Of a stretch of DNA of 64,000 nt, positions 11,135 through 63,138 are shown one piece after another. The translations under genes and the position numbers were made by a program. The stretch spans positions 416,001 to 480,000 of the forward strand of contig CAVRAL010000004.1 in NCBI GenBank assembly GCA_963719085.1, read 5' to 3'. The notes below the pieces were generated by a model. It was not told the origin of the DNA, did no database searches, and worked only from the letters and a program-made list of their open reading frames with translations. The first letter of the stretch is position 1, and each line of letters starts with the position of its first letter. The stretch comes from a candidate division FCPU426 bacterium. GTDB lineage: Bacteria > Oederibacteriota > Muellerivitia > Muellerivitales > Muellerivitaceae.

Positions 11135-11225
11135 TGGCGGAGAGAAAGGGATTCGAACCCTTGAGACCCTTTTGGAGCCTACACGCTTTCCAGGCGTGCG
11201 CCTTCGACCGCTCGGCCATCTCTCC
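11135..11225 (-). tRNA. tRNA-Ser(GGA)
   Basis: ggagagatggccgagcggtcgaaggcgcacgcctGGAaagcgtg...gttcgaatccctttctctccgcca; long variable arm; encoded CCA. Confidence 0.97.
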
Positions 11226-11320
11226 ATCAATTGACTCGGCTTGGCGCACGTGCGCCTGAACTCAATTCAAACTTTAATTTTATTCTTAATGGACGATTTC
11301 GTTTCGGCCCTTCGGGACCG

Positions 11321-11343
11321 TCGACCGCTCGGCCATCGCTCCA
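11321..11343 (-). repeat. Copy of the 5' end of tRNA-Ser (22/23 identity to 11204-11226)
   Basis: tcgaccgctcggccatcgctcca vs tcgaccgctcggccatctctcca. Confidence 0.85.
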
Positions 11344-11410
11344 CAAACAACGCCATAAAAACAAAAAGCCCGCCTCATGCAGCGAGCTAAAACCCAAGCC
11401 ATGAAAAAAA

Positions 11411-11486
11411 TGGTGGAGATGAGCGGGATCGAACCGCCGACCTTCTCGTTGCGAACGAGACGCTCTCCCAACTGAGCTACATCCCC
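11411..11486 (-). tRNA. tRNA-Ala(CGC)
   Basis: ggggatgtagctcagttgggagagcgtctcgttCGCaacgagaaggtcggcggttcgatcccgctcatctccacca. Confidence 0.97.
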
Positions 11487-11602
11487 ATCTGTCTCTAGAC
11501 CGCCTAACCGCGCCAATTTCGTTGAAACGGCGTCTCGTTCGACGGCCCTAAAATACTTTAGGAAAAGTCCGCTCTATGGACTTTTCAACCTTCCGTCCAC
11601 AA

Positions 11603-11633
11603 AGACGCTCTCCCAACTGAGCTACATCCCCAT
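11603..11633 (-). repeat. Exact 31-bp copy of the 5' end of tRNA-Ala (11458-11488)
   Basis: agacgctctcccaactgagctacatccccat occurs twice. Confidence 0.95.
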
Positions 11634-11702
11634 GTCCTTCAACCAACCCATCCTTCGACTCGCCGATGCTCCGCATCGTCTTGCTCCGGACAGGCCTAGC
11701 TC

Positions 11703-12173
11703 CTACCGCTTACGCAGGTCCTTAAAAAACTCGCTCAAAATCCGCGAACAGTCTTCTTTTAATATACCGCTTTCCACCAACACCCGGTGGTTCAGCTTGG
11801 GGTTCAAAAGGACCCTAGCCGTACTATCCACCGCTCCCGCTTTGGGGTCCGGGGTTCCATAGTAAACCGTCCGAACACGGGACAAAACCATGGCACCCGC
11901 GCACATCGTGCAGGGTTCCAAGGTCACGTATAAATCACAGTCGCTTAACCGCCAGTCGCTTCGCTTGGCCGAGGCCTTGCTCAAGGCCACCATTTCGGCG
12001 TGGACTAAGGCGCTTTTTTTGGCTTCCGTCAGGTTGTGTCCCCGGGCAATGATCTTCCCCTGATACACCACCACGGCTCCCACCGGCACTTCTTTTTTGA
12101 CCGCGGCTTTACGGGCTTCCCGCAGGGCCGCCTTCATAAACTTTTCGTGGGGATTTTTCAGCTGATTCCTCAC
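11703..12173 (-). CDS. tadA: tRNA adenosine(34) deaminase
   Basis: EVPVGAV, HAE, LYVTLEPCTMCAGA, DPKAGA, LNH. Confidence 0.95.
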   Translation of the reverse strand: MRNQLKNPHEKFMKAALREARKAAVKKEVPVGAVVVYQGKIIARGHNLTEAKKSALVHAEMVALSKASAKRSDWRLSDCDLYVTLEPCTMCAGAMVLSRVRTVYYGTPDPKAGAVDSTARVLLNPKLNHRVLVESGILKEDCSRILSEFFKDLRKR

Positions 12174-12314
12174 CGCTTCTTGAAAACCATCACCCCAGGG
12201 ACTCTCCTATATAGAAGAGACTGGGTATATTTTAAAAAAGAAAATGACGCGTCCCAAAGAACTACCATTTCCTCATTTTATGGCGGCGAAACCGCCACCC
12301 ATACAATGAGAAAA

Positions 12315-12391
12315 TGGTGCGCCTGGAGGGATTTGAACCCCCAACCCTCTGATCCGTAGTCAGATACTCTATCCAGTTGAGCTACAGGCGC
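12315..12391 (-). tRNA. tRNA-Arg(ACG)
   Basis: gcgcctgtagctcaactggatagagtatctgactACGgatcagagggttgggggttcaaatccctccaggcgcacca. Confidence 0.97.
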
Positions 12392-14540: not shown

Positions 14541-14993
14541 CTAAATATTGAATTGGCGGAGATGATGATCCAGGTGTTTGTATTCTAAGACGGCCCACTC
14601 CATGGGCGTAAGCCGGCCAAAAAAGGGATGGGGATGGCTCGTACAAGCCGAAGTCCCGCCTGAAACGAACCGGTCGATGAGCGAACAAAGACGCTCGCTC
14701 TCCACCGCTAGGTCGTGTTCGCCGCTCACGACCAACTCATCCAATGTAGGCGTATTGCGGCGAAATTCATCATCATTTCCTAAGACCATGGGTTTAATCA
14801 TGAAGCCTATCAATCGCCCGACCAACTTGCGGCGTGGCCTGATCTCACCCAGGGCCATCTCCAGTCCCAATACGCAATGCGCCATAACTTGGGCCGGACT
14901 CCGTTTTCCCCATTGCCGAACACTGTCGGGCCTCAGCTTATCAATCCGCCGCTTTACTTCATCCGCAAGAGCGACATCAAACAGGTTTTTCAT
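14541..14993 (-). CDS. DUF1569 / DinB-like protein
   Basis: QWGK..PAQVMAHC, HPFFGRLTPMEW..LEYKHLDHHLRQF. Confidence 0.9.
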   Translation of the reverse strand: MKNLFDVALADEVKRRIDKLRPDSVRQWGKRSPAQVMAHCVLGLEMALGEIRPRRKLVGRLIGFMIKPMVLGNDDEFRRNTPTLDELVVSGEHDLAVESERLCSLIDRFVSGGTSACTSHPHPFFGRLTPMEWAVLEYKHLDHHLRQFNI

Positions 14994-15045
14994 TTGAGTT
15001 TTCTCCGCGAAAGATGAGTGCTTTTCGCTTGTTCAATCCGGGCCT

Positions 15046-15094
15046 CCATTCCGTACGATTCGCAAACCGTGAAGTTTGAGTTAATTCAACAAAA
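15046..15094 (+). repeat. Conserved intergenic site, copy 1 (core attccgtacga-ttcgca-aaccgtgaagt)
   Basis: Aligns with 16204-16252 and 17427-17476. Confidence 0.85.
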
Positions 15095-15116
15095 TGTCTA
15101 TCAAGCGACGAAGTGC

Positions 15117-15365
15117 TTAATCGTCACTATTATTGGTGAATTTTTTCCTGACAATTGAATCAATAATCCAAGCCAAAAGATAACCTCCAACAATCCCGGC
15201 AAAACCACTCCAACTCATAGGCCAGTGTCCCGTGGTAATTTTTAAAATCACCCAGTAAAAAATCATAATAAAAATCCAAAGAAGAAAACCAAACGCGGAC
15301 ACGTCTAATACACTGGGGCCCGTCCCCGGAGCTATCACGCCTTTTTGATTTAATTTTCTAATCAC
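15117..15365 (-). CDS. Small hypothetical membrane protein (2 TM)
   Basis: 82-aa ORF with two hydrophobic helices; fills the intergenic space. Confidence 0.55.
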   Translation of the reverse strand: MIRKLNQKGVIAPGTGPSVLDVSAFGFLLWIFIMIFYWVILKITTGHWPMSWSGFAGIVGGYLLAWIIDSIVRKKFTNNSDD

Positions 15366-15453
15366 GGGTTTTTCCTGGAAAATTTAATCAGATAAATTAG
15401 TTCGAACTATTTAGTCTATAGCAACCCGCCAAAGAACCTTTTTCTCAAAAAGC

Positions 15454-16191
15454 TTAAAGAATCCCTTCAAAACAATCCAAGATGGGGGCTTTGATAGGCA
15501 TGAAATAAGCGTTCCCGTCCACCGAAGCGATTCGGCTCAAAACGCTTTTCGCGAAATCACGATTCCAATCTAAGGTCGGAGTGAAGTTTTTAGGAAAAAC
15601 GGCCTTATTTCTTGTCTCCCAATAATTTTTGGAGTTCGCCGTTAAAACCGGGGAAACGCCCCAAAACACTTCGTAGGATTGGAGCAATTCGAAATAGATG
15701 TCAAAAAGGCGGATATCGAAAAAAGGTTGGGTGAAAAAACCATCCGCGCCTGCCTCCCGTTTGGCATGCGCGTAATCCAGTTCTTTGTGAATTCCCTGTC
15801 GATAAGGATCGAAAGCCGCATAAATCTTAATTTCCGGAATTTCTTTCTTGAATTTCTTGATTACGTCCAAAACATCCGAGGGATATATCTTTCTGGAGAT
15901 ATCCTGGGGAATATCGCCGCTAATCAAGACAATTTCCTTCAAGTGATTTTCCTTAAGAAAGGCGGCCATGGGCAACGGTTCATTCAAATTAATGTCAACG
16001 GCCCGAATGTGGGGTATGGCTTTTTCAAAAAAAGGTTTCACATATCCGCAAGCGACCCAACTTCTCAAATCAAACCGCAATAAATCAGGAATGTTTATCG
16101 CGGTTACTTTTTTAAGATTTTTCGAGATCTTTTCGACTTCGTCCAATATGGACTCTTTATTTCTTGGCACCAATTCCAATGAAATTCTCAT
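15454..16191 (-). CDS. metF: Methylenetetrahydrofolate reductase family protein (short form)
   Basis: ISLELVPR, INIPD, IPHIRA, ISGD, K..AGADGFFTQPFFD. Confidence 0.8.
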   Translation of the reverse strand: MRISLELVPRNKESILDEVEKISKNLKKVTAINIPDLLRFDLRSWVACGYVKPFFEKAIPHIRAVDINLNEPLPMAAFLKENHLKEIVLISGDIPQDISRKIYPSDVLDVIKKFKKEIPEIKIYAAFDPYRQGIHKELDYAHAKREAGADGFFTQPFFDIRLFDIYFELLQSYEVFWGVSPVLTANSKNYWETRNKAVFPKNFTPTLDWNRDFAKSVLSRIASVDGNAYFMPIKAPILDCFEGIL

Positions 16192-16203
16192 TCAATAACT
16201 CCT

Positions 16204-16252
16204 CATCCCGTACGATTTTCGAACCGTTAAATTCGAGGTAATTCGATGAAAA
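16204..16252 (+). repeat. Conserved intergenic site, copy 2 (core atcccgtacga-ttttcg-aaccgttaaat)
   Basis: Aligns with copies 1 and 3. Confidence 0.85.
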
Positions 16253-16326
16253 AACTTATAAAGACGGGCAGACGTGAAACGGTTCTATTGTTTTAATCAA
16301 AATTTGTTACCGATCATATTATTCGC

Positions 16327-17412
16327 CTATTTCTTTTGTTGGCTTTCCCAAGTTAAATAAGTTTTAGATTGAAGGATACTTTTAAACTGAGGGTCGCTAT
16401 TTATAGTCTTTTCATAGGCAGGATTAAGTTTGATTACTTTCCCAATTTCGGACACAGCTCCTTGCTCATCAAATTCGGCAAAATCCGCCAAAGCCAAATT
16501 GTAGTGACCCATAATATAATCCGGGTTAATTTGAACAGCCTTTTCAAGAGCATTTTTAGCGGCGTTAGATGCTCCCGCCCTTAGATAGGCGTAACCTAAA
16601 TATTGCCAGGCGGAATAATCGCTTGGATGATCCTGCAGATCCAACTTATATTCTTGAACGGCACAATTATATTCATGTTGATGGAAATATTTTTTTCCAC
16701 GCGCCAAATGATCTAAAGATTCGTCTGGATCACTACAACCTTCCAATAATTCTTTTTCGTCCAATGGTTTCCAATAACCCATAAACCTCATCTCGTTTTT
16801 GTCCCAAAGCTTTTTTCCTTCATCCGAAACAATCTCCAATGCATCTTGTTCCGGGAGGTAAACAAAATGTGGTTCTGTACCTGGGCCGCCTTTTCCAATC
16901 CATTCAACTGTGCTTATTGCGTTTATTATTTTTGATCCATTCCAATAATCGAACTCCCATTCGGCTGCACCGGCCGCTAAACCCCATTCAGTTTCATATC
17001 CCCAAAAAAAGGGAAAACCTTTCTTTTCCAAACCGAAAACCAAGTTATCGCCATAGCCCGAATCTTCACTATCAAGTAGTTTTCCCGTTTCATCCAAAAT
17101 GAAAACTTTGTTTTTTGCTCCATCGAAACGGACGAGCGAAATAATTTCAAATTTACCATCCTGGTTTAAATCCGCTAAATAAGATATTACTGACTTCATT
17201 TGCCCATCGGACGAAATATTTTTGGTGATCAATTCTGTAAAATTGTCGATTTCGACTTTTTTTCCACTATTGTCAAAAAGAACCAAACTCTTATTAGAGT
17301 CGTCACTGTCTAATTCAACACCTAATAAACCGTTAACCGAGGCTCTTACCAAAAGCGGAATCATTAAAAAAATAATCAACCCGGTCAAAAAATAAATTTT
17401 GAAGACTTTCAT
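16327..17412 (-). CDS. Exported protein with FG-GAP/EF-like DLNQDG motif and C-terminal TPR repeats
   Basis: N-terminal hydrophobic segment, ADLNQDGKFEII, AWQYLGYAY..A..ALEKAVQINP; AT-rich; start chosen from the GGAGAG RBS. Confidence 0.75.
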   Translation of the reverse strand: MKVFKIYFLTGLIIFLMIPLLVRASVNGLLGVELDSDDSNKSLVLFDNSGKKVEIDNFTELITKNISSDGQMKSVISYLADLNQDGKFEIISLVRFDGAKNKVFILDETGKLLDSEDSGYGDNLVFGLEKKGFPFFWGYETEWGLAAGAAEWEFDYWNGSKIINAISTVEWIGKGGPGTEPHFVYLPEQDALEIVSDEGKKLWDKNEMRFMGYWKPLDEKELLEGCSDPDESLDHLARGKKYFHQHEYNCAVQEYKLDLQDHPSDYSAWQYLGYAYLRAGASNAAKNALEKAVQINPDYIMGHYNLALADFAEFDEQGAVSEIGKVIKLNPAYEKTINSDPQFKSILQSKTYLTWESQQKK

Positions 17413-17426
17413 TACCAAATGACTCT

Positions 17427-17476
17427 CCATTACGTACGATTTGCGAACCATTAAATTCCAGGTTTTTCGATGAAAA
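17427..17476 (+). repeat. Conserved intergenic site, copy 3 (core attacgtacga-tttgcg-aaccattaaat)
   Basis: Aligns with copies 1 and 2. Confidence 0.85.
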
Positions 17477-17499
17477 AGGACGCCAATAAGAGGGGAATC

Positions 17500-17988
17500 T
17501 TATTTTTTAAAGTTCTTTTTAGGAATATAAAGAAAAGAACCTCCATCCCAATCCAAAATCATTTTATCCCCAGGGCCATCAACAACAAATGTGTATTTGT
17601 TATAGGGTTCGTCTGTTTTGAATTCGACAACGCGATCTGAAAACTTAAATCTTTTGGGATCAAGTGACCCTTTTTCGGTTGGGTCAAAATCTTCACATTT
17701 TTCAATCGGCATGACTTTTCCAGGATAAATAATTTTAAAATCAAATTTACGTGTTAGGCCATCGGTTAAATTAACAATATCGAATTTCATCACACCATTT
17801 TTAATTTTTGCAGTCTTACCAATCATTCCTTTTATGCCATTATCATCCCATGCCCCTATGTCCGGCTCGTCGCCATCAACGCAGACCCATTCACCATCTA
17901 AATTAATATTCAAAACATTAATATCCTTTTTTCTTGAACAAGAAACGATAACCAGGATTATCAGTAAAATAAGAGTGATTTCTTTCAC
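17500..17988 (-). CDS. Hypothetical lipoprotein (AT-rich)
   Basis: GGAGG RBS + GTG, lipobox IVSC. Confidence 0.65.
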   Translation of the reverse strand: MKEITLILLIILVIVSCSRKKDINVLNINLDGEWVCVDGDEPDIGAWDDNGIKGMIGKTAKIKNGVMKFDIVNLTDGLTRKFDFKIIYPGKVMPIEKCEDFDPTEKGSLDPKRFKFSDRVVEFKTDEPYNKYTFVVDGPGDKMILDWDGGSFLYIPKKNFKK

Positions 17989-18192
17989 GATACCTCCCTG
18001 GGTTGGACTCGAGCCTTTTGAAACCCAAGTCATTTTATGTCCACTTTTAGGGGCTATAACGGAAAAATGACATGATTCCTTAAATCTCAGAAGCTTCAAA
18101 TCCAATTGGGGGTTGCGCGGTTGCGCTCATCGCAAAAAAAGCAGGCTCCCCGCACCGCGGCGGACAGCTTGGCCTTTGGTTGTAACGCTGGT

Positions 18193-20160
18193 TTAATGAA
18201 TAACGACTAGCCGGCCGGTAGCGACCCCGAGGGGTTTTATCAGATAAACAATATAAATCCCGCTGGCGACTTTTTGGCCGTAGGTGTTGGTTCCATCCCA
18301 GCTCAATGTTGTCAACGGCAGTGGTTGGGTTAAGGTTTCATCGAACAATGTCTTAATGTGCTCACCCGCCGAGTTGTAAATCCTCAAGGTCATCGGACCA
18401 AAATATTGGCCGGACGCGATCTTGATGCCGACTGTTCCATCGAGGGTTTCATTAAAGACATTTCTGGAAATCTCAAATACATCTCCTGAAACCGTCGGCG
18501 TCGGAGTCTCGGAGCTGATGGGTGTATGGACCGGCGTGACAGTGGCTGTCGCCGGCGGCGGGGTGGGCGTAAGCGTAGGTGTTATGAGAGGCACAATGGT
18601 CTCTGTCACGGTAGGCGTACCCGTAGGGGACAATGTTTTCGTCGAGGTTGGAGTGGCGCTGTTGGTGGCGGTGGGGGTTGACGTACTCGTGGCGGTTGGT
18701 ATGGCGGTATGGGTGGCCGTGTTGGTGGAGGTAACGGTGCAGGTGACGGTGTTGGTAAAAGTCGATGTACCTGTGGGAGTGCTGGTGCAGGTTGGTGTGG
18801 AAGAAGCCGTCGAGGTGCTGGTAGGTGAGTTCGTCGAGGTTGGAGTGGCGCTGCTGGTGGCCGTCAGCGTCGCGGTGGGGGTCGGCGTATTCGTGGCGGT
18901 TGGTGTCGCGGTATGGGTCGCTGTTTGGGTGGCGGTGGCCGTAGGACTGTTGGTCCAGGTAAAAGTGGGAGAAGCCGTGAAAGTGCTGGTGGGGGTTGGA
19001 ACGCAGCCGCTGAAAGTGATTGCCAGCGCCCGGGCGTTGCCGCTGACCAGCAGGTCGCTTTGGTTGTCGTCATCGTCATAGGGAAAACCATAAGCCAGAT
19101 TGTTCAGATTGACCGTATGAAAAAAGGCCGAGTAATAATTACAGGGAGCGGTTTGATAAAAGGCCGCGGGGTTGTTGAGGTTGGCCGCGTTGTCGAGAAC
19201 GTGGCGGTTAATGCCGGCGGCCATCACCACTTCCAACGCCAGCTCGGTGGGATTTCCGCTGGCGAAGACGCCGGAAGCGGCCAGCGCGTCCTGCGTGGTG
19301 GGATAGCCGACAGTGTAAGGCCCGCCCGGACCGGTAAAAGTCATCTGGCTTCCCGGGCCCGTCGTGGTGCCCGAGTAGGTGTTGCCCCCAACGCTGATGA
19401 CCAAAGGCTTCGACTGGTACTCGGTCCAGAGCTGGGAAATATAGCCGTCCAAGTAAGTGCCGTTGGCCCCGCCCGCCGCGAAAGTGCCGTCCGCGGGGGC
19501 CACGATCCGCGTTGAGCCCACCAGGGAATTGAAGATGGCCGCGCCCGGGATGGAGTTCATATAGGCCTCGTACTTGCTCACGATGTCGCTAGCGCAATCC
19601 GCGACGCCGCTGGCGCCGTTGAGGCCCCCGCCCACATTGTACAAACCCATGGTGTAGGCAATGCCGAACATATTCACCTGGGTGGTATTGCAGTAAATGT
19701 AATCACTGCCCTCGTCAAACTCCATCCAGTCGAAAACGGTATTGATGTTGGGGTCGCTTGGATTGCCGATATTGGGCTGTACGATGCCCGGCCCCGCCAC
19801 GATGGGCATGTTCAAGGGCGAGTAAAAAGAAAACCACATGCGGCCCGAGCCCATCACGGGCAACTGCAGTCCGGCGGGGCTTAACGCGTCGATCTGGGCC
19901 AGGGTCATGGTATAGCCGCTGGCGTTCTGGCCGGGCACAATGGCGTTCATCGTTCCACCCGGAGTGAGATAGGCATTGTTGGCCAACACACAGATGTAAA
20001 CCTGATTGTTGGGCACGGTCGTGTTATTGACGAACTGGCAGGTCATCACTTCCCCGCTATTAAGGGAGATGAGCTGGGCCCGGACCCCGGAGGCCGAAAG
20101 AAAAAGAAGACAACTCGAAAGCGCTGTCAAAGTGAATAGGCGCGCGGAAATTGAGACCAT
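18193..20160 (-). CDS. GH64 (beta-1,3-glucanase-like) domain + Thr-rich linker + FlgD-Ig C-terminal domain
   Basis: SGRMWFS, NPSDPN..DWMEF, NTTQVN, NYYS..H..AYGFPYDD; long (T-x) repeat; IYNSAGEHIKTL..WDG....VASGIY. Confidence 0.85.
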   Translation of the reverse strand: MVSISARLFTLTALSSCLLFLSASGVRAQLISLNSGEVMTCQFVNNTTVPNNQVYICVLANNAYLTPGGTMNAIVPGQNASGYTMTLAQIDALSPAGLQLPVMGSGRMWFSFYSPLNMPIVAGPGIVQPNIGNPSDPNINTVFDWMEFDEGSDYIYCNTTQVNMFGIAYTMGLYNVGGGLNGASGVADCASDIVSKYEAYMNSIPGAAIFNSLVGSTRIVAPADGTFAAGGANGTYLDGYISQLWTEYQSKPLVISVGGNTYSGTTTGPGSQMTFTGPGGPYTVGYPTTQDALAASGVFASGNPTELALEVVMAAGINRHVLDNAANLNNPAAFYQTAPCNYYSAFFHTVNLNNLAYGFPYDDDDNQSDLLVSGNARALAITFSGCVPTPTSTFTASPTFTWTNSPTATATQTATHTATPTATNTPTPTATLTATSSATPTSTNSPTSTSTASSTPTCTSTPTGTSTFTNTVTCTVTSTNTATHTAIPTATSTSTPTATNSATPTSTKTLSPTGTPTVTETIVPLITPTLTPTPPPATATVTPVHTPISSETPTPTVSGDVFEISRNVFNETLDGTVGIKIASGQYFGPMTLRIYNSAGEHIKTLFDETLTQPLPLTTLSWDGTNTYGQKVASGIYIVYLIKPLGVATGRLVVIH

Positions 20161-20929: not shown

Positions 20930-21036
20930 CGTGGAAGTCGGGTCCTATACGGCGAGCCGGCCCCAACTCCGCCAGGTCCGGAAGGAAGCAACGGTTAGGC
21001 ATGTGTTCGGGCGTTGTAGTCAACCTGGCTTCCACG
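20930..21036 (+). ncRNA. ffs: SRP RNA (4.5S, small type)
   Basis: Conserved gccaggtccggaaggaagcaacgg domain IV; closing stem cgtggaag/cttccacg; directly upstream of dnaX. Confidence 0.95.
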
Positions 21037-50499: not shown

Positions 50500-50574
50500 T
50501 CCCCGGTAGCTCAATGGTGGAGCATGCGACTGTTAATCGCAGGGTTGTTGGTTCGAGTCCAACCCGGGGAGCCA
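50500..50574 (+). tRNA. tRNA-Asn(GTT)
   Basis: tccccggtagctcaatggtggagcatgcgactGTTaatcgcagggttgttggttcgagtccaacccggggagcca. Confidence 0.97.
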
Positions 50575-50579
50575 TAAAC

Positions 50580-50616
50580 GAACCAGACCCCTCGAAAGAG
50601 GGGCCTGGTTTTTTTC
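50580..50616 (+). terminator. Intrinsic terminator after tRNA-Asn
   Basis: accagacccctc-gaaa-gaggggcctggt followed by a T-run. Confidence 0.85.
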
Positions 50617-51151
50617 TACGCCGTCGAATGGTTTTCCAGCGGAAAACAGCCACAGGTAACAAAAAAATAACTGTCCCCAGCAAGGACAAGAGCCCCCGCC
50701 CCTCCGATTTTGGGAGAACGGGGGCTTTTTTATTTCTGATGGTCAGTGATGGCAATCGAGGGCAAAAAACGGGTTTGAATGGCACTCAATGACACGGGAA
50801 TGACACAGCCCAAAACCCTTATTTTTGAAGTGCATGCGACTCAAAACTATTGGCCTTCAGGTCGTGTCGGTTCTAGTTCGACTTGGCCCAATTTCAATCA
50901 GTTTGATAAACGCGTTCATATGGCCCATCTTCCTGACTTTTCCCGGTGTTCTTTTAGACATCCTGATCATAAGGCGGGATTAGAAGGCCGGGGCAACCAG
51001 CCACCAGGGTGCTATTTGCGGAAAGATAAGCGAAGATATTTGTGCGGAAAAAATCCTGATCGCACCTTCCTGCTTGAAGATTGGAATCGTATTAGGCTTG
51101 GACCTGATAGGCCATGTGTAACTGGGATTGTGTGAGGAAGGGGCATTCATT

Positions 51152-53782
51152 ATGCAAGCAACTCCTGGTAAATCCGAAAACGTATCGCCGCTTCCGAAGC
51201 CGGCAAACGCCAAGGTGCCCGACATTACTTCTGAGTCAATACCGGACACTTTGGCGGGACTTCGTGTAAATTCTGAAACCGGACTGACCAGTGCGGAAGT
51301 CGAAACGCGGCGGAAAGAAAATGGTTTTAATGAAGTAGCCGTTAAAAAGGAACATCCGGCCCTCAAGTTTCTTGGGAAGTTTTGGGGATTGTCTGCTTGG
51401 ATGCTCGAATCGATCATGATGTTGTCGGCAATACTGGGGAAAATTCCTGATCTGGTCGTGGTGGGAGTGCTCCTAGTCGTCAACGCGGTGGTGAGTTTTA
51501 CCCAGGAACACCGGGCCGCTGGTGTCGTAGAGACCCTTAGGAAGCGACTTCAAGTCAGCGCCCGAGTATTACGCGAGTCGTCTTGGCGGCTAATTCCCGC
51601 CAGGGAGTTGGTTCCCGGGGATATCATTCGTGTTCGCCCCGGGGACATTATTCCCGCCGATGCCAAGCTTTTGAACGGGGCTTTGAGCATTGATGAATCG
51701 GCCCTGACGGGCGAGTCCAAAGACGCCGACAAAGCCCCCGGCGGAGTACTTTCTTCGGGATCCATCGTCCGGCGCGGTGAAGGCGGTTGCGTAGTGATGC
51801 TAACCGGGGCCAAGACCTTTTTTGGCCGAACCACCGAGCTGGTCCGGGAAGCCCATCCGAAACTTCACCTAGAAGCAGTGGTTGCGAAGGTGGTCCGTTG
51901 GCTCCTTTTGATCGTGGGGGCTTTGCTTATTGTGGTCATCTTGTTGTCCCTTATTCGTGGCATACCTCTCCTCCAGACGCTCCCGCTTTTACTCATACTA
52001 TTGATGACTGCGGTGCCGGTCGCCCTACCCGTCATGTTCGCGGTCAGTATGGCCGTCGGATCCAAGGAACTAGCGAAGGTCGGCGTCTTGGTGACACGCC
52101 TTAACGCGGCTGAGGACGCGGCCACAATGGATGTCCTTTGCGTGGATAAAACGGGGACGATCACCCTTAACCAACTGGCGGTTACCGGCGTGATCCCTCA
52201 GGAACAGGTGTCGGAAGCCGAAGTATTGTCCGCCGGGGCGCTTGCTTCCCAAGAGGCAAATCAGGACCCCATTGACCTGGCATTCCTTGCCGCGTCGAAA
52301 GAACGGCGGCTTTTCGAAGGCAAGGCGGCCTTCGTTCCGGTTTCTTTTGTGCCCTTTGACGCTAAAAACCGGCGGACGGAGGCCGTGGTCGAACAAAACG
52401 GCCAACGGACGCGCGTAATGAAAGGAGCCGTGGAAACAGTCGCCCAAGCTTGCGGTTTCCAGCTCCCCGCCATCCAGGCTTTGGAGGCCAGGACGGGCGA
52501 AGCGGCAGCAAAAGGATTTAGGACCTTGGCGGTTGCGCGGGGTCCTGAAGCAGGTCCTTTGGTATTGCTCGGATTGGTGACTCTTTATGACCCGCCTAGG
52601 CCTGACGCGAAGCAACTGATCTCTGAACTCAAGGACTTAGGTGTACCGGTCAAGATGCTCACCGGGGACGCATTGGCGGTTGCGAGAGAGACCGGCCAAG
52701 GGGTCGGGTTACCCAATATCCGGCCCGTCTCGGATTTGAAAAAGAACTCTTCCCCTACAGACCAGCGGATGGACTTATTGGCCGGGGCGGATGGATTCGC
52801 CGAGGTGTACCCGGAGGATAAATATACGGTCGTAAAGCATTTGCAGACGGCGGGCCATGTGACCGGGATGACCGGGGACGGTGTCAATGACGCGCCCGCC
52901 TTGCGCCAAGCCGAAGTGGGCATTGCCGTCAGCACCGCCACCGATGTGGCGAAGGGGGCCGCCAGCGTTGTCCTCACCGAACCGGGATTGACCAACATCG
53001 TGGCGTTAATCAAGCAGGGCCGGGCTATTTACCAGCGAATCCTGACTTGGATTATCAACAAGATAAGCAGGGGTATTTTGAAAGCCGCTTTCGTCGCCAT
53101 TGCCTTCGTGTTAACCGGAAAATTCGTCATTTCGGCTTTGGCCATGCTGTTACTCGTTTTCGTTTTGGACTTCGCGACGATCGCCTTGGCCACCGACCGT
53201 GTCCGTCCCTCCGGAAAGCCGGAAACCTGGGCCATCGGGGGTTTCATCACCGTTTCCATCGTGATCGGGCTTGCGATGGTTGCGGAAACACTTCTATTCC
53301 TGTGGATGGGTTGGTCGCGGCTGGGTTTGTCGGCGGATAGCTATGCTCTTTGCACCTTTAGCTTTTTGATCCTGCTTTATTTCAGCGTTTTTTCAAGCGT
53401 TTCCCTGCGGGAACGGCGCTGGTTCTGGGCAACCTCGCCCAGTAAATTCTTTATTGCGGCTCTCATGGCGGGAGCGCTAGGCGGAACTCTCCTGACCTTT
53501 GTGGGACTTCCGGGGCTTCCGGCATTACCTGGTTGGCAGACAATCGTGATATTGGTTTATGCCCTCGTTTCGTGCTTAATCGTGAACGATGCCTTAAAGG
53601 TCGGAATTATCAAATGGAGTATTCTAAATAATCCGTTCAAGAAACCTGCTGAAATAACCCTGACAGTTCCCCAGCGCGCTTATGAACTTTACGAACAAGG
53701 CGGCCGCAAGGACGGCCATGCGGCCCAAGATTGGGAACAGGCTGAACAGGAAATTTCGGAAAAGCAAAAACTTCACAAATGA
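51152..53782 (+). CDS. P-type (IIIA) plasma-membrane H+-ATPase with C-terminal DUF2934-like motif
   Basis: [33 protein letters not shown]6 Asp (VLDF); tail RAYELYE..GR.DGH..QDW..AE. Confidence 0.92.
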
Positions 53783-53799
53783 TGATTGGAGGAGAATTC

Positions 53800-54714
53800 A
53801 TGAAAATTGATCCTAAGGATTATCGGGTTAAGGCGGGGCGGGCCATCGAACTCAAAAAGTGGCCTACTCGAATCAAGCCCCTTTACAGTTCGCGGGAGGA
53901 TTATCAAAAAGCCTTGGCCAAACATGTGGAAGAGCTAAGCTCATTACAAAGCCTGCTTTATGCGGACAATCAATATTCAGTGCTTTTAATCTTCCAGGCC
54001 ATGGATGCCGCCGGTAAAGACGGGGCCATCAAACATGTCATGTCCGGGGTCAACCCACAGGGATGCCAGGTTTTCAGCTTCAAGCATCCCAGCGACGAGG
54101 AACTCCAGCATGACTTCCTTTGGCGTACCACCCGTGACCTGCCGGAACGGGGAAAGATCGGAATTTTCAATCGCTCTTACTATGAAGAGGTGCTCATCGC
54201 CAGAGTTCATCCTGAAATTCTTAAAGCGGAACAAATACCGGACAATCTTCTGAATGAGGGATCCGTGTGGGAAGGACGTTATCGTTCCATTGTGGAATTG
54301 GAAAATCATCTTCACCGCAACGGCACCCGGATCATCAAGTTTTTCCTGCACCTTTCCAAGGAGGAACAACGAAAAAGGTTTCTGGACCGGCTGGAAAAGC
54401 CGGAAAAGAATTGGAAGTTCAGCCTGAATGACATTAAAGAACGGGAATATTGGAAGGAATACCGGAAGTCTTACGAGGCCTGCCTGAGCGCCACGAGCAC
54501 CCCAACGGCCCCGTGGTTTGTGGTTCCGGCGGACGATAAGAAGGATGCCAGGCTGATCATTTCACAGGTCATCCTTGATAACCTAAAGGAACTGAAGATG
54601 AGCTATCCAAAACCGAACAAGGGACGTCGGAAAGAACTTAAGATTTCCCGGAACCTTTTAATCGAGCAAGGTAAGAAAATAAATCAGGAAAAAGAGGGTT
54701 CAGTCGAAGGTTAA
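53800..54714 (+). CDS. ppk2: Polyphosphate kinase 2 family (polyP:nucleotide phosphotransferase)
   Basis: [32 protein letters not shown]. Confidence 0.95.
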
Positions 54715-54889
54715 AATTCATAATGCGAAACCTACAAAATCCAATAATTATAACTAATGTTTCAATATACCCGGATGTTCAAAAGCCATACTCAGGGATA
54801 AAGGGGTCAACTTAAAGGCTTTTTCCAGGCTATTTCAAAATCAGGAGGGGGGTCTTGACGCTAATCGGGGGAAGGAGTTAAATATTTTT

Positions 54890-55249
54890 ATGTCCAATTT
54901 GCTTTCACATTTCCGCCGTGTTTCTCTCGCCGGACTGATTACACTCAGTTTGATCCCATTTGCCTGCCAGGCATTGTTAACTATCGTGCTTCATGGGTCC
55001 TGTGTTTCCCAGACCTCCATTTCGAGTGATTCCAGTGGTCACAGGAATGGCGCAAGGACGCTCTTGCGCCAGATTAACTCGCAGGCTCAAGAAGATTCTT
55101 TTAAGGACTTCAAGAAGGTGTTAAACATAATGGCTGTGGCGAACGCCATAGCCATTTTAATTTTATGCAGCGCAAGTTTTTACAGGTTTGTTGTTCTTCC
55201 TAGCTTAAATACCCCTTCGTCGAACCGCCTACTCCCCTTAAGAATTTAA
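54890..55249 (+). CDS. Hypothetical small protein (doubtful)
   Basis: ORF with two hydrophobic segments downstream of a TTGACG element. Confidence 0.35.
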   Translation: MSNLLSHFRRVSLAGLITLSLIPFACQALLTIVLHGSCVSQTSISSDSSGHRNGARTLLRQINSQAQEDSFKDFKKVLNIMAVANAIAILILCSASFYRFVVLPSLNTPSSNRLLPLRI

Positions 55250-55381
55250 AGTCCAATTTAAATTTTTTTGATTACCCCAGAAAAGGGTAATTATTCCTTT
55301 ATGCATTTATTGCATATCGGTTTTCCGCGTTTCAATTCAACTTACCCACAAACCTATTGTTTTCAAGAAAAGGAACTAAAC

Positions 55382-55660
55382 ATGGAATGGAAATTGACTA
55401 TACCCAACCCGACCGGCCTCCGTTTTGAAATCTTGTCGAATTTATGGAAAATCGCCACCCAGTTCAAAGGCCATATTCAAATTCGAAAAGGGCGGGTTTG
55501 GGCCGATGCCAAAAGTTACATCCAGGTGGTTGCCCTAATCAACGCCACGGGAAAAAAGATGGAAGTAAAGGTCCAAGGCGAAAACGCGAGAGAAATTCTG
55601 GAAACGATTCGAGGCTTACTGCTGGAAAAACATCCTGTCGAAATTATGAACAAGCCATGA
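55382..55660 (+). CDS. HPr-like protein lacking the His15 equivalent
   Basis: TIPNPTGLRF, A.QF...I, ADAKS, V.V.G.NA; AAGGA RBS. Confidence 0.75.
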   Translation: MEWKLTIPNPTGLRFEILSNLWKIATQFKGHIQIRKGRVWADAKSYIQVVALINATGKKMEVKVQGENAREILETIRGLLLEKHPVEIMNKP

Positions 55661-55720
55661 GGCCATTCGATTTCCGGGGGCGGAATTAGTCGCCCCTGAT
55701 TTCTTTCAAAAGGATGTTTG

Positions 55721-55906
55721 ATGGATTGCCGGGAAATTCACTCACTTTACAAAGATTTTGTTCAAGGAAAATTATCCTCCGCTCAAACCGAGTTTATTAA
55801 AGAGCACATCTGGGACTGTCCGGATTGTGTTTTATTGAACGCGGAAGAACGAAAAATTTATTTGGAAGAGCATCGCAATCAACTAAAGGACGAAAACTTG
55901 AATTAG
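55721..55906 (+). CDS. zf-HC2 (anti-sigma-type zinc finger) mini-protein
   Basis: MDC..I....D...G.LS.......EHIWDCPDC. Confidence 0.75.
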   Translation: MDCREIHSLYKDFVQGKLSSAQTEFIKEHIWDCPDCVLLNAEERKIYLEEHRNQLKDENLN

Positions 55907-56101
55907 TGACGTTCAGAAAAGATTTCGAGGAATCGTCCGTAGTGATTTTTTTCCATACGTTGAAGTGATGATTTTTTTCGGATTTTTACTTAAACCGGAT
56001 TTTGATTCGGGGTTTTGGTGTCAATCACTCACTTATCGCCGTCTTGAAACGCTGAAAGGTTTCGGTCGATAAGTCTTCGTTGTTCTGTCGGGAGGAATTA
56101 C

Positions 56102-57361
56102 ATGAAGCGGACAAACATTTTTTTGTTTTTTGTTTTTTTGTTCACAACCAGCGCTCTTTTCGCCCAATTTCGCGGCGGGGGAGCACATGCCGGTGGAAGC
56201 GGGGGCGGGTATGGCGGGGGAAGCGGATGGAGCAGCGGCAGCAACCGGGGGGATGGCGAAGCGGGCGGCGGTCATGAAAATTATGGAAACGCTTCCAATT
56301 CGATAAATCGCGGCGTTTCGGGGGGCTATTCGAACCAAAGCAATGGCCGTTTGGGCGGGGTTTACCATCCTGGAACATCTCAAAGTTTTTCTCGAAATCG
56401 GACCCGTTTTTATCAGTCGAATCATCGAGATAGTTGGAGTTATTCCAGGGCTTATTCAGGATCAAACTTTAATGGAACCCACCAATACCAAGCCGCAAGG
56501 AATTATCCCCCCGCTTATTCGTACACCAACAGAAATGGAATTGGTTTTCAAAATTCAAGGAACATTGGCGCTACCAAGCTGGGACGTTCTACCGCCAATG
56601 GGAACCAACTCTTGTCGGCTGGCAACCTCCGGCACACTTCGGTGTTGCTACCGACTCGGGGTTTCGGTGGCGGCGTCCTATCCGCCTCGGTTATCCCATC
56701 CCGAAATATGAGCGGGAAAGCGGTCCGAAATCAAATGTCGGCCATTGCCCATAACTCAAATTTCAGCAGAAACATTAACGCCCACAACGGCTCTGAAAAT
56801 AGGTCGGGACATTATTATTGGCATAACTGGAATGGAGGCCAATATTGTCACTACCGTGATCAGTGGGGATGCAATTGGTATGGATGGTATGCGGGGAATG
56901 ACTGTTTTTGGACCCAATATTATCTGGACAATTGGTGGTGGTATGACCCCTCTTATTCCCGTTGGTGTTATTGGGATGACGGTTGGTGTTGGCAAGATCC
57001 GGCTTCAAATGTTTACGTCTATAACGACGGGAGTTATCTTCCGACGGAAACATCCGTAAATGACGGTTCGGACAGCGATGGCGGGCCCAGCGAAACGACA
57101 AGCGGCGGGGACGCGACTCCGACTTCTTTTCAAAGCCTGGATAATTCACGCACGATCAATTTGGAAGGACCGGACAACGACGCCATTTTGTACAAATCGG
57201 ATGAAAACGATTCATCAAGCCGTCCCATTTTTCTCGCTTCCCATGTCACGGAAGCCAAGTTTTCAAACCCCGATCAGGGCCCGCTCCGCATCCTGCTCTT
57301 TATGGATGATGGAAATTTCGAGTTGTTCAACGCGGATGGAGCGCGACTGGATCGCGACTAG
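56102..57361 (+). CDS. Exported Gly/Asn-rich protein with Trp/Tyr-rich segment
   Basis: GGAGG RBS, signal peptide, Gly-rich N-terminus, HYYWHNW..WYGWY..WWWYD. Confidence 0.65.
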   Translation: MKRTNIFLFFVFLFTTSALFAQFRGGGAHAGGSGGGYGGGSGWSSGSNRGDGEAGGGHENYGNASNSINRGVSGGYSNQSNGRLGGVYHPGTSQSFSRNRTRFYQSNHRDSWSYSRAYSGSNFNGTHQYQAARNYPPAYSYTNRNGIGFQNSRNIGATKLGRSTANGNQLLSAGNLRHTSVLLPTRGFGGGVLSASVIPSRNMSGKAVRNQMSAIAHNSNFSRNINAHNGSENRSGHYYWHNWNGGQYCHYRDQWGCNWYGWYAGNDCFWTQYYLDNWWWYDPSYSRWCYWDDGWCWQDPASNVYVYNDGSYLPTETSVNDGSDSDGGPSETTSGGDATPTSFQSLDNSRTINLEGPDNDAILYKSDENDSSSRPIFLASHVTEAKFSNPDQGPLRILLFMDDGNFELFNADGARLDRD

Positions 57362-57431
57362 GTTCAAAAGATTGTCATGACACAAAAGTTTAATTTCATT
57401 GGCGGGAATTAATTCAACTTCGGAGGGCAAA

Positions 57432-57803
57432 ATGCGAATGGGCATTGTTGGATTGGGAAAATTGGGCATATATATCACGCGAAACCTCATGGGGTGCGGT
57501 CATGAATGTGTGGTGTTTGACTATCAAGTCAAGTTGGTTAGGTCGCTGGTAAAAGAGGGGGCCATACCAGCGCCTTATTTTGACGACTTACTAAAGAAGA
57601 TTCCGAATCCCAGGATTATTTGGCTGACATTGCCATCGGAAAATCACATTGAAAGGATCTTGAGTATCTTGGCTTTGATTTTAGATCCCGGGGACCTGGT
57701 GATTTATGTTCGCGAATCTCGTTTAGGTAATGCTCCTCAAGGATTGAATAATTCGGAAACTAGCGGTTGGAATTTAATGGGTGGTCTTAAAAGAAGTCGT
57801 TGA
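57432..57803 (+). pseudogene. gnd: Truncated 6-phosphogluconate dehydrogenase (NAD-binding N-terminal part only)
   Basis: MRMGIVGLGKLG..RNLM..GHECVVFD, PRIIWLTLP, L.PGDLVI, then divergence and stop at about 123 aa. Confidence 0.7.
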
Positions 57804-57908
57804 ACGAAACGCTTTTCGAAAATATTTTAAAAACATGATCGCAAAATTTCCAAGTTCTTCTAAAAAATAAACCAGTATCACTTGGAAATTTACGGAAGGA
57901 TTTAAATT

Positions 57909-58910
57909 ATGCTTAGCCTGTCTCATGAAACCGTTTTAAAGACGTTCCTACTTTTGGCGGGGTTGGCCTTGGGCCATTCGTTTGCCTGCGCCGGTGAGCT
58001 TGCCTTTTCTAAGCCTGAGCAATTAACGACCATTCCCTGGTTCAACGGTTCTAACCAGGGCGTTTCCCCCAATGGACCTGAGTGGTTAGTAGTGGACAAC
58101 CAAAGACGTTATTGGCTGGAAGAGGGCACGGATTTTAGACTTTACACCAGCAACGGACATTATCTCCGGACTGTCTCCCCTCTTGATAAGCAGATGGATT
58201 TCTACGGATTGGCGTCGACGGAAGCACTACCAGATGGCCACATCATATTGTTACAACGACAGGAAACACGATCGGAACAAGAGCGGAAGTTTAATTATGA
58301 GAATCGATCACAGCCGGGAGTCCTATTGATCGTTCTCAAAAACGATGGAACAGTTGAAAAGGAGAAGGTGGAAGTTGACCCTCACGAACCCCATTCGGAT
58401 TATTACTTGGAAGGCCGAACCCTTTACAGCATCCATGATGACGGAACCTATGAGCAATTGGATTCCATTGGCTCCCGCTCCATAGACCATCATTTCGGAA
58501 ACTTCGCCGCTGTTGATGACCCAAAGAATTGGCTGGCCCATGTGAAGACACTACCGATCTTCCATTCCGAAAACAGGTATTACCAGGATATGAGCGGAAA
58601 ACTTCATGCGGACAAAAACGCGAAATCATTCCTGATGGGTCAGCCTTTTGTTGAAGGGACTTCCCCTTTGGCGGAAAGAAACGGGATTATCTATTACCGA
58701 GTGGTGTGTTGCCCTCTTGGCAATTTCACTCATAAGGTTTTCGTGGAGGACCCAATCCATAAGAACTATGCCCTTATTGACCTAGTGGCCGAGGACGAGG
58801 ACCTGGACGCCGCCAACAACCGTGCCCTTTTCGTAAATGAAAAGGGAGACTTGTTCGAAGGAGTCGCGGAAAAAGAAGGTTACAGGATTTATGAGTGGAA
58901 AATCCTCTAA
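57909..58910 (+). CDS. Hypothetical exported protein
   Basis: 333-aa ORF with signal peptide. Confidence 0.65.
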   Translation: MLSLSHETVLKTFLLLAGLALGHSFACAGELAFSKPEQLTTIPWFNGSNQGVSPNGPEWLVVDNQRRYWLEEGTDFRLYTSNGHYLRTVSPLDKQMDFYGLASTEALPDGHIILLQRQETRSEQERKFNYENRSQPGVLLIVLKNDGTVEKEKVEVDPHEPHSDYYLEGRTLYSIHDDGTYEQLDSIGSRSIDHHFGNFAAVDDPKNWLAHVKTLPIFHSENRYYQDMSGKLHADKNAKSFLMGQPFVEGTSPLAERNGIIYYRVVCCPLGNFTHKVFVEDPIHKNYALIDLVAEDEDLDAANNRALFVNEKGDLFEGVAEKEGYRIYEWKIL

Positions 58911-59060
58911 TGAAATGCAGATCGAATTATTTTTCCACGGACCGGAACAAAAGCACCGTTTCTTTTCTCTCGGAATTCATGTCTACCCCCGGGTTAAATG
59001 GTTGAATATCCGATTTCAGGATAACCGGTTAATAGGGCCATCGATATGACTTCGGTCATG

Positions 59061-59453
59061 TCAGCCTTCCCACAATAGGTAAATGGCCATGGCCATACCT
59101 ACTAAAATGAGGCAGGAGGCCGTGACCAAGCCCAGCCATGAAAAGCTGGGTTCGGGGTTCTCGCCCCGGTGGAAGCGTGAAATGAACCGGTAATAATCCA
59201 CCGTGGATCCAACCTGTATGAGGACACTCAAAAACACTAAGCTTGTGCCGATCCACATGGACCAACTAGGTTGGGCGGCGGCCTGAACGGGTTCGTTGAG
59301 CCGAATCATGCGCAGGAAGAGGCCGAAGCGGGCCACCACGAAGCCGAAACCCATCAGGGCCAAGCCGGTTCGTAGCCAAGCAAGGAAAGTGCGTTCCTTC
59401 GCCCAGTAGATCCGGGGGTCTTGGGTAGCCGAATTCTTTTTTTGTACTTTCAT
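59061..59453 (-). CDS. DUF202 (YidH-like) membrane protein
   Basis: DPR...A.ERTFLAWLRTGLALMGFGFVVARF. Confidence 0.9.
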   Translation of the reverse strand: MKVQKKNSATQDPRIYWAKERTFLAWLRTGLALMGFGFVVARFGLFLRMIRLNEPVQAAAQPSWSMWIGTSLVFLSVLIQVGSTVDYYRFISRFHRGENPEPSFSWLGLVTASCLILVGMAMAIYLLWEG

Positions 59454-59672
59454 GAGACTATTTTGAGGCCTGGACAAGCAAAAGGCCACTTTCTTTTTAA
59501 AGAGCCGAATAAAATAAGACAGCAGTCTCGATACACTTAATTTTTTGAAAAACGGAAACAGCATTTTTAAAACAAGCGCTTTTGAACGATATGGCGAGGT
59601 GTTCAGCGGGGCTTTCAAAACGCTCGTCGGTTTGGTGTTCTGGGTATGGCCTGTTCTTTAAAGGAGTTCCTG

Positions 59673-60290
59673 GTGCCGAATCGGGAAGAGCATTGGGAAA
59701 AGATCTATTCCGAGAAAAATCCGGATGAGGTGAGTTGGTTCCAGGAAGTCCCAAAAAAATCCCTCGACCTGATAAACCTGTCCGGAGTTTCAAAGGACGG
59801 GAATGTAATTGATGTTGGCGGGGGGGCATCGGTCTTGGTGGATCGCCTCTTGGAAAACGGGATGAAAAACATCACGGTTTTGGACATTTCCAGCAAGGCT
59901 CTCGAATATGCGAAAAAGAGGCTTGGAAACCGGGCCCAACAGGTGAAATGGGTGGTGGCCGACGTAACCCAATTCAACCCTTCGGAAAAGTTCGATTTAT
60001 GGCACGACAGGGCGGTTTTTCATTTTTTAACGGAGGCATCCGACCGTAAACGATATGCCGAAATAGTCGGCCATTCCATTAAACCCGGGGGCCATTTGAT
60101 CCTGGCTTCGTTCGCGTTGGACGGCCCGGACAAATGTAGTAACTTGCCGGTTTGCCGGTATGACGGCGAAATGATCGAACACGAGCTTGGAAATAATTTC
60201 AAATTGATTAAAGAAGATTCTGAAACCCATTTAACACCTTGGAAGAAAGAGCAAAAATTCAGGTATTTTTTATTCTCTAAAACATTATAA
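59673..60290 (+). CDS. Class I SAM-dependent methyltransferase
   Basis: HWEKIY..EVSWFQ, IDVGGG, LDIS, WHDRAVFHFL. Confidence 0.92.
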   Translation: MPNREEHWEKIYSEKNPDEVSWFQEVPKKSLDLINLSGVSKDGNVIDVGGGASVLVDRLLENGMKNITVLDISSKALEYAKKRLGNRAQQVKWVVADVTQFNPSEKFDLWHDRAVFHFLTEASDRKRYAEIVGHSIKPGGHLILASFALDGPDKCSNLPVCRYDGEMIEHELGNNFKLIKEDSETHLTPWKKEQKFRYFLFSKTL

Positions 60291-60416
60291 GACTGCTTTA
60301 GAACTGTTGTTTTCAAGCGATGGCCTTCCCCTGGCCTTTGCCTGCCTTTGTTGGTCCCTGCAACATCCTTCTCCGGGGCTTCGTCCCGGGTCCCCCACAA
60401 AACCCCTAAAAGCCCC

Positions 60417-60448
60417 TTGACCCTGAAGTATACTCCAGCATTTATACT
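60417..60448 (+). promoter_or_regulatory. MerR-type promoter/operator
   Basis: TTGACC-N20-TATACT with dyad CTGAAGTA|TACTCCAG in the spacer. Confidence 0.88.
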
Positions 60449-60465
60449 TTCCCCCGGAGTCGAAA

Positions 60466-60843: not shown

Positions 60844-60848
60844 GGGGA

Positions 60849-61942: not shown

Positions 61943-61946
61943 GCTT

Positions 61947-62351: not shown

Positions 62352-62363
62352 GACCTAATTTTT

Positions 62364-63119: not shown

Positions 63120-63138
63120 GAACCACCCCCTGCTTTTT

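Follow-up and report, generated by a model that had tools for sequence, protein, structure and literature searches.

What does it mean when one direct repeat stands three times within a few kilobases, each time a short distance upstream of a different and unrelated gene? The question is raised by a low-GC island in the 64,000-nucleotide stretch of DNA that we analyzed (the window; G000:C4:416001-480000), which comes from the genome of an uncultured soil bacterium (G000; 3.04 Mb, 99% complete, GC content ~54%). A preliminary description of the window had read the repeats as dif-like sites that delimit the modules of an integrase-less cassette array and had named a portable promoter as the alternative. 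We distinguish A sites, direct repeats of ~50 bp that lie behind cassettes, from B sites, a different repeat at the head of an array. Based on comparisons with relatives and metagenomes, all of them assemblies of uncultured organisms (metagenome-assembled genomes, or MAGs, and metagenome contigs), the A sites are probably attC-like joints of a small integron-like array, and B is probably its attI-like head, copying the 3′ end of tRNA-Asn.

The repeats themselves are real. A pattern derived from the three sites has just three matches in the window (15052, 16209, and 17433) and none in 100 shuffles, with the sites spaced by 1157 and 1224 bp, as originally reported. They lie 19-75 nt upstream of minus-strand open reading frames (ORFs), all annotated genes in the array region are on the minus strand, and the region forms an island of low GC (15000-18150; GC 0.34-0.43, flanks 0.50-0.62), which confirms the placement upstream of unrelated minus-strand genes in AT-rich DNA. 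Read on the gene strand, the conserved A element spans ~50 nt, tCGAAtTAcCTnGAATTTrAyGGTTCGCAAATCGTACGGAATGGGGAG, and is longer than the core first noticed; its 3′ end is a G-rich, purine-rich hexamer. In the window the A-site hexamers (15042-15047, 16199-16204, and 17423-17428) fall at or just outside the low-coordinate edge of the sites as first delimited. That inventory was correct for the three A sites and overlooked a B site at 17990-18016, a half-site at ~15403-15416, and the likeness to tRNA-Asn.

Genome-wide profile scans find exactly three arrays in G000, each composed of one B followed by one to three A sites on the same strand: the window array (B and three A), C1:1075139-1074487 (B, one A, and one half A), and C4:553684-552803 (B and one A). 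Elsewhere in G000 the B profile matches only tRNA-Asn and a 45-nt tRNA repeat that bounds an island described below. The five full A copies and one half copy of this genome all lie just upstream of same-strand ORFs. Allowing at most one mismatch, the 16-mer core is present in 19 of the 41 related genomes of a wider scan (14 of the 24 that belong to the same family), and the exact 15-mer occurs in 22 of the 31 genomes of our family sample, where the reversed control gave no match. The A copies of relatives are typically tandem, co-oriented, and 300-1200 bp apart, with one small low-GC ORF behind each. The first low-GC ORF of an array is preceded by B, conserved as GGTTCGAGTCCAAC(C/T)CGGGGAG, and not by A, so that the layout reads core gene, B, cassette, A, cassette, A, core gene. 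The array set used for site counts (75 loci from relatives and metagenomes, 489 kb) holds 134 A and 43 B sites; of 51 loci that could be evaluated, having either a B upstream or >2.5 kb of sequence on that side, 38 have B ahead of the first A. A 27-mer used to scan metagenome contigs returned 36 stretches, and the sufficiently long contigs show B and then A sites; one soil metagenome contig, L118, carries one B and 12 A sites across 8 kb. A strict 26-mer scan of genome contigs gave 7 stretches, from MAGs. Eleven matches to a 17-mer on viral contigs were rejected as chance occurrences, as the A profile gives them merely 15-20 bits.

The genes that flank the arrays vary: a Na/H exchanger and an ABC transporter; CstA; a sugar transferase and an epimerase; and a ~650-aa protein with an OmdA-family gene. 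A further location, the PBP2-RodA junction, shows the state without sites. In 17 of 19 evaluable family genomes, a ~620-aa ORF, which is PBP2 by position with Pfam confirmation in G019 only, abuts RodA with neither A nor B, and arrays are present at this junction in G019 and G006. The B…A block is therefore an insertion into a previously siteless place. In one genus (G042:C5 and G043:C88), PBP2 and RodA form a single open frame of ~1005-1026 aa, either a fusion or an overlap of the two genes without an in-frame stop.

The sequence of the sites indicates where they came from. B equals the final ~22 nt of tRNA-Asn: the T loop, the 3′ strand of the T stem, the 3′ strand of the acceptor stem, and the discriminator. 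The tRNA-Asn(GUU) gene, sole copy in the genome, lies in the window at 50500..50574 on the plus strand, with the 3′ end GGTTCGAGTCCAACCCGGGGAGCCA. The A site shares with this tail GGTTCG, GGGGAG(CCA), and the 9-nt spacing between GT and the hexamer, and it has 5-6 additional bases (CAAATC) at the T-loop position. In G033, a member of another family, removing AAATC from the A site leaves a sequence that agrees with the genome's own tRNA-Asn tail at 25 of 28 nt; this genome has two A sites downstream of its tRNA-Asn gene, at distances of 1.5 and 2.6 kb. Judged by these alignments, both A and B derive from the tRNA-Asn 3′ end. Among the genomes compared, G033 is the only one with A sites behind tRNA-Asn. 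The arrays of G000 are at least 32 kb from tRNA-Asn or on another contig, and none starts at the tRNA gene itself; a tRNA scan of 8 array loci found no tRNA gene in 7 of them. The tRNA-Asn gene of G000 is occupied by another element, an island of ~32 kb that is integrated there (window 50575-64000 and beyond; G000:C4:466575-498571). A 45-nt repeat of the tRNA-Asn 3′ half (C4:498527-498571) closes the island, and adjoining the repeat is a gene for a P4-like tyrosine integrase (C4:497336-498439) with two paralogues elsewhere in the genome.

The units between the sites turn over. The 151 ORFs that follow a site comprise 99 singletons and 21 clusters, 5 of which occur behind both A and B, and the upstream neighbors differ within several clusters. 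Cassettes have a median length of 156 aa and a median GC of 0.39, vs. ~0.54 for the genome, and are mostly without a Pfam family (9 of 13 in L118). Several cassettes are present in more than one genus. The window's MTHFR-like cassette is found again, at 79-89% nucleotide identity, in G014, G018, and two metagenome contigs, where its neighbors and arrays differ; a 153-aa cassette is common to G003 and G014 (91.6% identity), and a zinc-ribbon cassette to G000 and G005 (80%). At one locus in closely related strains, the distal cassettes (156-182-150 aa) are common and the B-proximal end differs, as would be expected if new cassettes were added at the head. The repeats thus hold up as the joints of an integrase-less tandem array, since relatives gain, lose, and reorder modules at them and no recombinase gene lies nearby.

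To what position within the joint can this turnover be assigned? A 119-aa cassette is 100% identical in two loci whose left flanks and B variants differ; the identity starts at CGGGGAG of B and stops at GGGGAG of the next A. A 918-nt block stands behind B in L114 and behind A in L128, and its identity begins at the first G of GGGGAG. In a third comparison the same left flank and B are followed by two different cassettes, and in a fourth the same cassette and A are followed by two different cassettes; in both, divergence sets in directly after GGGGAG. Because identity starts or ends there in four comparisons of near-identical contigs, the exchange maps, on the evidence of assembled sequence, within or at the edges of the hexamer GGGGAG that A and B share. 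In the 918-nt case, B and A have only 6-7 bases in common where they meet the block, too few for homologous recombination or an assembly join to account for it. The prediction that modules change exactly at the 6-bp spacer of the original parse therefore held for the sites but not for the TTCGCA spacer, from which GGGGAG is ~15-20 nt away.

We propose that a cassette consists of one, sometimes two, low-GC ORFs followed by an A site, and that it would be excised, presumably as a circular intermediate, and inserted by site-specific exchange within GGGGAG, the 6-bp core with which A and B alike terminate. The site of insertion could be B or any A, and the product would be the series B-cassette-A-cassette-A and so on to the core gene. 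The enzyme would be encoded away from the arrays and act in trans. In such a scheme each joint would supply a Shine-Dalgarno sequence to whatever ORF arrives, the resident core gene included. The position of the hexamer is consistent with this role: for ORFs of at least 40 aa, a start codon follows the hexamer at 3-13 nt in 54 of the 110 A sites and in 26 of the 41 B sites, and resident core genes stand directly behind the last A in G006 (RodA), in G002 and G043 (an epimerase), and in the window (DUF1569). The hexamer thus appears to be the Shine-Dalgarno sequence of the next ORF, and every joint would hand it on, because the core is purine-rich and lies 3-13 nt before the start. A terminator scan predicts none inside the window array, and a sigma-70 promoter scan found none at the sites (7 found vs. 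7.9 expected); transcription is most likely by read-through from upstream.

These same features might instead mark a portable expression signal, an explanation that we consider unlikely. The repeat would be a promoter plus leader, either of the extracytoplasmic function (ECF) type (GAAT-N16-CGTA) or another regulator site, the arrays would form a small regulon, and their genes would have been shuffled by homologous recombination between the 50-nt repeats. The sites always lie on the gene strand, just 5′ of ORFs, and include a ribosome-binding site; the three window copies fit T(C/G)RAAY-N16-CGTA; the five full copies in G000 match a small regulon in number; the terminator scan predicts none within the window array; and 1.5 kb from array 3 there is a gene for an ECF-type sigma factor, although in convergent orientation. 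However, one cassette occurs behind B and behind A with just GGGGAG shared at the joint, which homologous recombination cannot yield. ECF promoters carry -35 and -10 boxes at a fixed spacing of 16-17 nt, with transcription starting ~6-8 nt after the -10 box, whereas 13 of 73 copies have a hairpin of ~30 nt between the supposed boxes, so that the spacing is not fixed, and many copies read CGTT instead of CGTA. Moreover, conservation across families extends over ~25 contiguous nt and takes in the "spacer"; the genes behind the sites are extremely varied, most of them orphans, with RodA, RsmD, and an epimerase among them; no G000 copy stands ahead of a sigma gene; and B sites, which are without such a motif, take the same position before the first cassette. 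The SigW-like ECF promoter suggested at first is not supported as the conserved function of the sites, although the short form may have promoter activity.

Returning to the integron-like array, we examined which enzyme could serve it. None of the 31 family genomes has an integron integrase (TIGR02249) above the curated cut-off, and G000 has no serine recombinase and no Y1 transposase. It encodes five tyrosine recombinases: three P4-like paralogues, one of which is the integrase at the tRNA-Asn island, one Xer-like enzyme (C1:829969-831090), and one other. An enzyme acting in trans is plausible, because tyrosine recombinases are the only recombinases found in this 99%-complete genome. Among known families, the likeliest candidate would be the P4-like integrase of the tRNA-Asn island, the most natural choice because its own target includes the B sequence, with the Xer-like enzyme second.

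Several observations weigh against an integron-like array. No recombinase gene was found at the 75 array loci, where homologues of the five tyrosine recombinases of G000 were sought, and neither of two profiled tyrosine recombinase types tracks the sites among the 31 genomes. Of the 22 genomes with A sites, 17 have the P4-like type and the other five are 63-85% complete; the same type is also present in 8 of the 9 genomes that have no A site. The fifth type is present in 7 of 31. The trans-acting tyrosine recombinase of the preliminary description therefore remains plausible from the gene content of G000, but the distribution of the types tested does not follow that of the sites. The junction evidence comes wholly from assembled MAGs and metagenome contigs, not from reads, and in one MAG contig (G003 C58) the repeated 119-aa cassette may have led to a chimeric join. 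Four public DNA runs, present as short contigs, contained no circular form, empty site, or read-level polymorphism, and no joints beyond paralogous site copies. Some cassette ends lie elsewhere, after TTCG (the half site of the window) or after GCAAATC (G023), and there are genes behind the last A with no further site (the infC locus of G000 compared with that of G001; GNAT-RodA in G019). Finally, the hexamers of the window are degenerate (GGAGGC, GAGGAG, GGAGAG, and AGGGAG) and one of its sites is decayed, so that the window array may be inactive, a fossil.

Two of the cases just named have further detail. At L041 (G023:C36), two A sites, at 3222 and 5452, are cut after GCAAATC and continue into the same AT-rich 23 nt; they also share a GC-rich stretch of ~60 nt, perhaps another element that targets the same position. 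At the infC locus of G001 (L074), an A site lies 70 nt ahead of the infC promoter and leader; at the corresponding locus of G000 (C1:1072370-1074512), 2.1 kb of small membrane-protein genes intervene and there is no closing site.

Very unlikely, in our estimate, is a Xer/dif-type mechanism in which host Xer recombinases stack integrating modules at 11-6-11 sites, in the manner of pdif modules or of integrative mobile elements exploiting Xer (IMEX). A dif-type site is 28 bp long, with two inverted 11-bp arms around a 6-bp central exchange region; pdif modules alternate in site orientation; and both pdif modules and IMEX such as CTX and TLC are integrase-less, rely on a host recombinase in trans, and are bounded by direct repeats of the target. 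The arrays resemble such modules in encoding no recombinase, in their direct repeats of a target site, and in the host recombinase that we propose to act in trans. G000 has one Xer-like tyrosine recombinase, and tyrosine recombinase candidates are very few in some array genomes (such as G006, G014, and G044), which are 63-85% complete. In contrast to a dif site, the proposed arms are not inverted repeats and no 11-6-11 dyad is present, folding of the window sites does not exceed that of shuffled sequences (z +0.2 to +1.1), the sequence is derived from tRNA-Asn, and the breakpoints lie at GGGGAG, outside the proposed TTCGCA spacer. All sites are direct repeats, unlike the alternating sites of pdif modules. 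The arrays, three per genome and in relatives inside operons, do not appear to be at dif, as judged from their number and orientation without the position of the genome's dif. On these features the dif/pdif-like parse with which the sites were introduced was rejected.

The reading as an integron-like array invites comparison with integrons proper, the textbook bacterial route to stockpile and reshuffle single genes. Their attC sites are imperfect inverted repeats (R''-L''/L'-R') that fold to a hairpin, and exchange takes place at the core GTTRRRY. The layout in G000 and its relatives is of the integron type, with co-oriented cassettes, one site each, a distinct head, and cassettes moving as units. 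As in integrons, there is one primary head site and one 3′ site per mostly single-ORF cassette in a common orientation, the pool of orphan cassettes is huge, arrays reach 12 or more cassettes, turnover is mostly at the head, and exchange occurs at a short core common to head and cassette sites. Sedentary chromosomal integrons and clusters of attC sites lacking integron-integrases (CALINs; Cury et al. 2016, PMC4889954) belong to this comparison. In contrast to integrons, IntI is absent from 31 of 31 family genomes, the core is GGGGAG instead of GTTRRRY and would double as a ribosome-binding site, the sites come from a tRNA 3′ end, and there are several platforms per genome, some of them in operons. 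No attC hairpin was found: on neither strand is folding of the three window sites better than that of shuffled sequences (z +0.21 to +1.06), and a left/right-arm complementarity score of at least 6 is reached by 11 of 64 sites vs. 5.9% of 1280 controls, a weak enrichment. With no hairpin and no integron integrase, an identification as attC was rejected.

That the sites instead act at the RNA level, as a processing or translation-control leader with an optional hairpin, whose tRNA likeness would reflect recognition by a tRNA-handling enzyme, we regard as most improbable: the stem of the optional hairpin is kept by compensatory changes (CCTCC/GGAGG, CTACC/GGTAG, CCTTC/GAAGG, and CCCCC/GGGGG), a ribosome-binding site is included, and the consensus fold pairs the stretch before GGTTCG with CCATT after GGGGAG, but an Rfam search of the sites matched no family, B can form no tRNA-like fold because it keeps only the 3′ strands of the T and acceptor stems, a right arm is found in only those 11 of 64 sites, the nearly invariant core is without covariation, and the breakpoints at the hexamer are left unexplained. 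RNA pairing of the upstream CGAATT stretch was likewise rejected, since its variants are without covariation. The hairpin is a module of ~30 nt directly after GCAAATC in 13 of 73 A sites of relatives; its loop contains CGCTAAAGC, and the loci that bear it include L034, L036, L059, L061, L065, L066, L067, L068, L073, and L031. G019 has a different hairpin at the same spot of the A site.

The integron-like arrays also have relatives in design beyond integrons. To our knowledge, integrase-less gene stacks between tRNA-end repeats have, outside integrons, been noted descriptively only. Among the closest systems are fGI-2 of "Ca. Methylopumilus," an additive flexible genomic island whose repeats are the last 20 bp of tRNA-Lys (PMC10872708), and the tycheposon islands of Prochlorococcus (bioRxiv 10.1101/2020.12.28.424599). 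As described there, such islands resemble the arrays in holding variable genes, mostly of unknown function, between direct tRNA-end repeats, in successive insertions that push older ones inward, and in the persistence of degenerate partial-tRNA repeats. Their location is the tRNA gene itself, and tycheposons come with an integrase and replication modules of their own, whereas the arrays use tRNA-tail look-alikes far away and are without their own integrase; they also differ in having single small ORFs as units, two site types (A with its T-loop insertion), and a 6-bp exchange point. The rAID-1 clusters of Bacteroidales, in which a conserved XerD-family recombinase at the head is followed by immunity genes, are likewise integron-like (Ross et al., bioRxiv 10.1101/471110), with skewed GC and repeats in the intergenic DNA, where the motif after the head differs from the one between ORFs. 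Unlike rAID-1, the arrays have no recombinase at the head, and their cassettes are mostly orphan membrane or secreted proteins.

We tentatively suggest a broader meaning, which may or may not hold: the arrays could represent an IntI-independent form of gene capture, in which the platform is a look-alike of a tRNA tail and the crossover core is a Shine-Dalgarno sequence, so that a captured ORF with neither promoter nor ribosome-binding site would be translated wherever it lands. Such platforms could arise at numerous positions on the chromosome, the mrdA-mrdB junction included, and be served in trans by the tRNA-Asn island integrase or another host tyrosine recombinase. What is new here is that the breakpoints are resolved to a 6-bp core, that this core would couple recombination to translation initiation, and that the platforms are tRNA-tail mimics scattered over the chromosome and not the tRNA gene itself. 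A full-text literature search on tRNA-derived cassette sites, with supplements outside its scope, returned no platforms away from the tRNA gene and no crossover core that is a ribosome-binding site. Should a trans-acting enzyme be found, the system would illustrate how a common lineage of soil bacteria draws on a very large pool of orphan small proteins, and it might also provide a compact "dock and express" recombination module.

The window array can now be followed from its upstream to its downstream core gene, all features being on the minus strand. Upstream is a GH64 beta-1,3-glucanase gene (18193..20160; Pfam), whose GC of ~0.58 sets it apart in composition, followed by a terminator-like hairpin at 18141-18153. 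The B site GGCTCGAGTCCAACCCAGGGAGG (17990..18016; profile B 25.6 bits, E 2.4e-5 genome-wide) forms the head and mimics the tRNA-Asn 3′ end from T loop to discriminator; its hexamer AGGGAG lies at 17994-17999, and a GTG start (17988) follows 5 nt further. This opens cassette 1, an ORF of 162 aa without a Pfam family (17500..17988; GC ~0.35). A site 3, first placed at 17429, spans 17423..17476 (profile A 44.6 bits), with the core GGTTCGCAAATCGTAC at 17434-17449 and the hexamer GGAGAG at 17423-17428. Cassette 2 (16327..17412; GC ~0.38) encodes 361 aa with a signal peptide and FG-GAP-like and TPR segments. It precedes A site 2, first placed at 16205 (16199..16252; profile A 46.3 bits), with the core at 16210-16225 and the hexamer GAGGAG at 16199-16204; an ATG stands 7 nt further.

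Cassette 3 (15454..16191) is a truncated MTHFR-like ORF of 245 aa, assigned by Pfam. Behind it lies the decayed half A site AAATAGTTCG (15403..15416), recognized by comparison with L118: its homology to a complete A site of that contig ends directly after TTCG. Cassette 4 (15117..15365; GC ~0.40) is an 82-aa membrane-like ORF without a Pfam family. The array ends with A site 1, first placed at 15048 (15042..15093; profile A 29.5 bits), which has the core GGTTTGCGAATCGTAC at 15053-15068 and the hexamer GGAGGC at 15042-15047 and adjoins DNA of normal GC. The downstream core gene (14541..14993), assigned to DUF1569/DinB-like proteins by Pfam, has a composition (GC ~0.52) in keeping with that DNA. 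Three minus-strand tRNA genes and a small signal recognition particle (SRP) RNA flank the region (11138-12391 and 20936-21033) and are unrelated to the sites. In a relative, at L046 (G007:C80, 3321-3420), an A site ending in GGGGAGCCA is followed by a hairpin that resembles the terminator behind the tRNA-Asn gene of G000, and this site lies within a long low-GC island with a reverse-transcriptase-like ORF.

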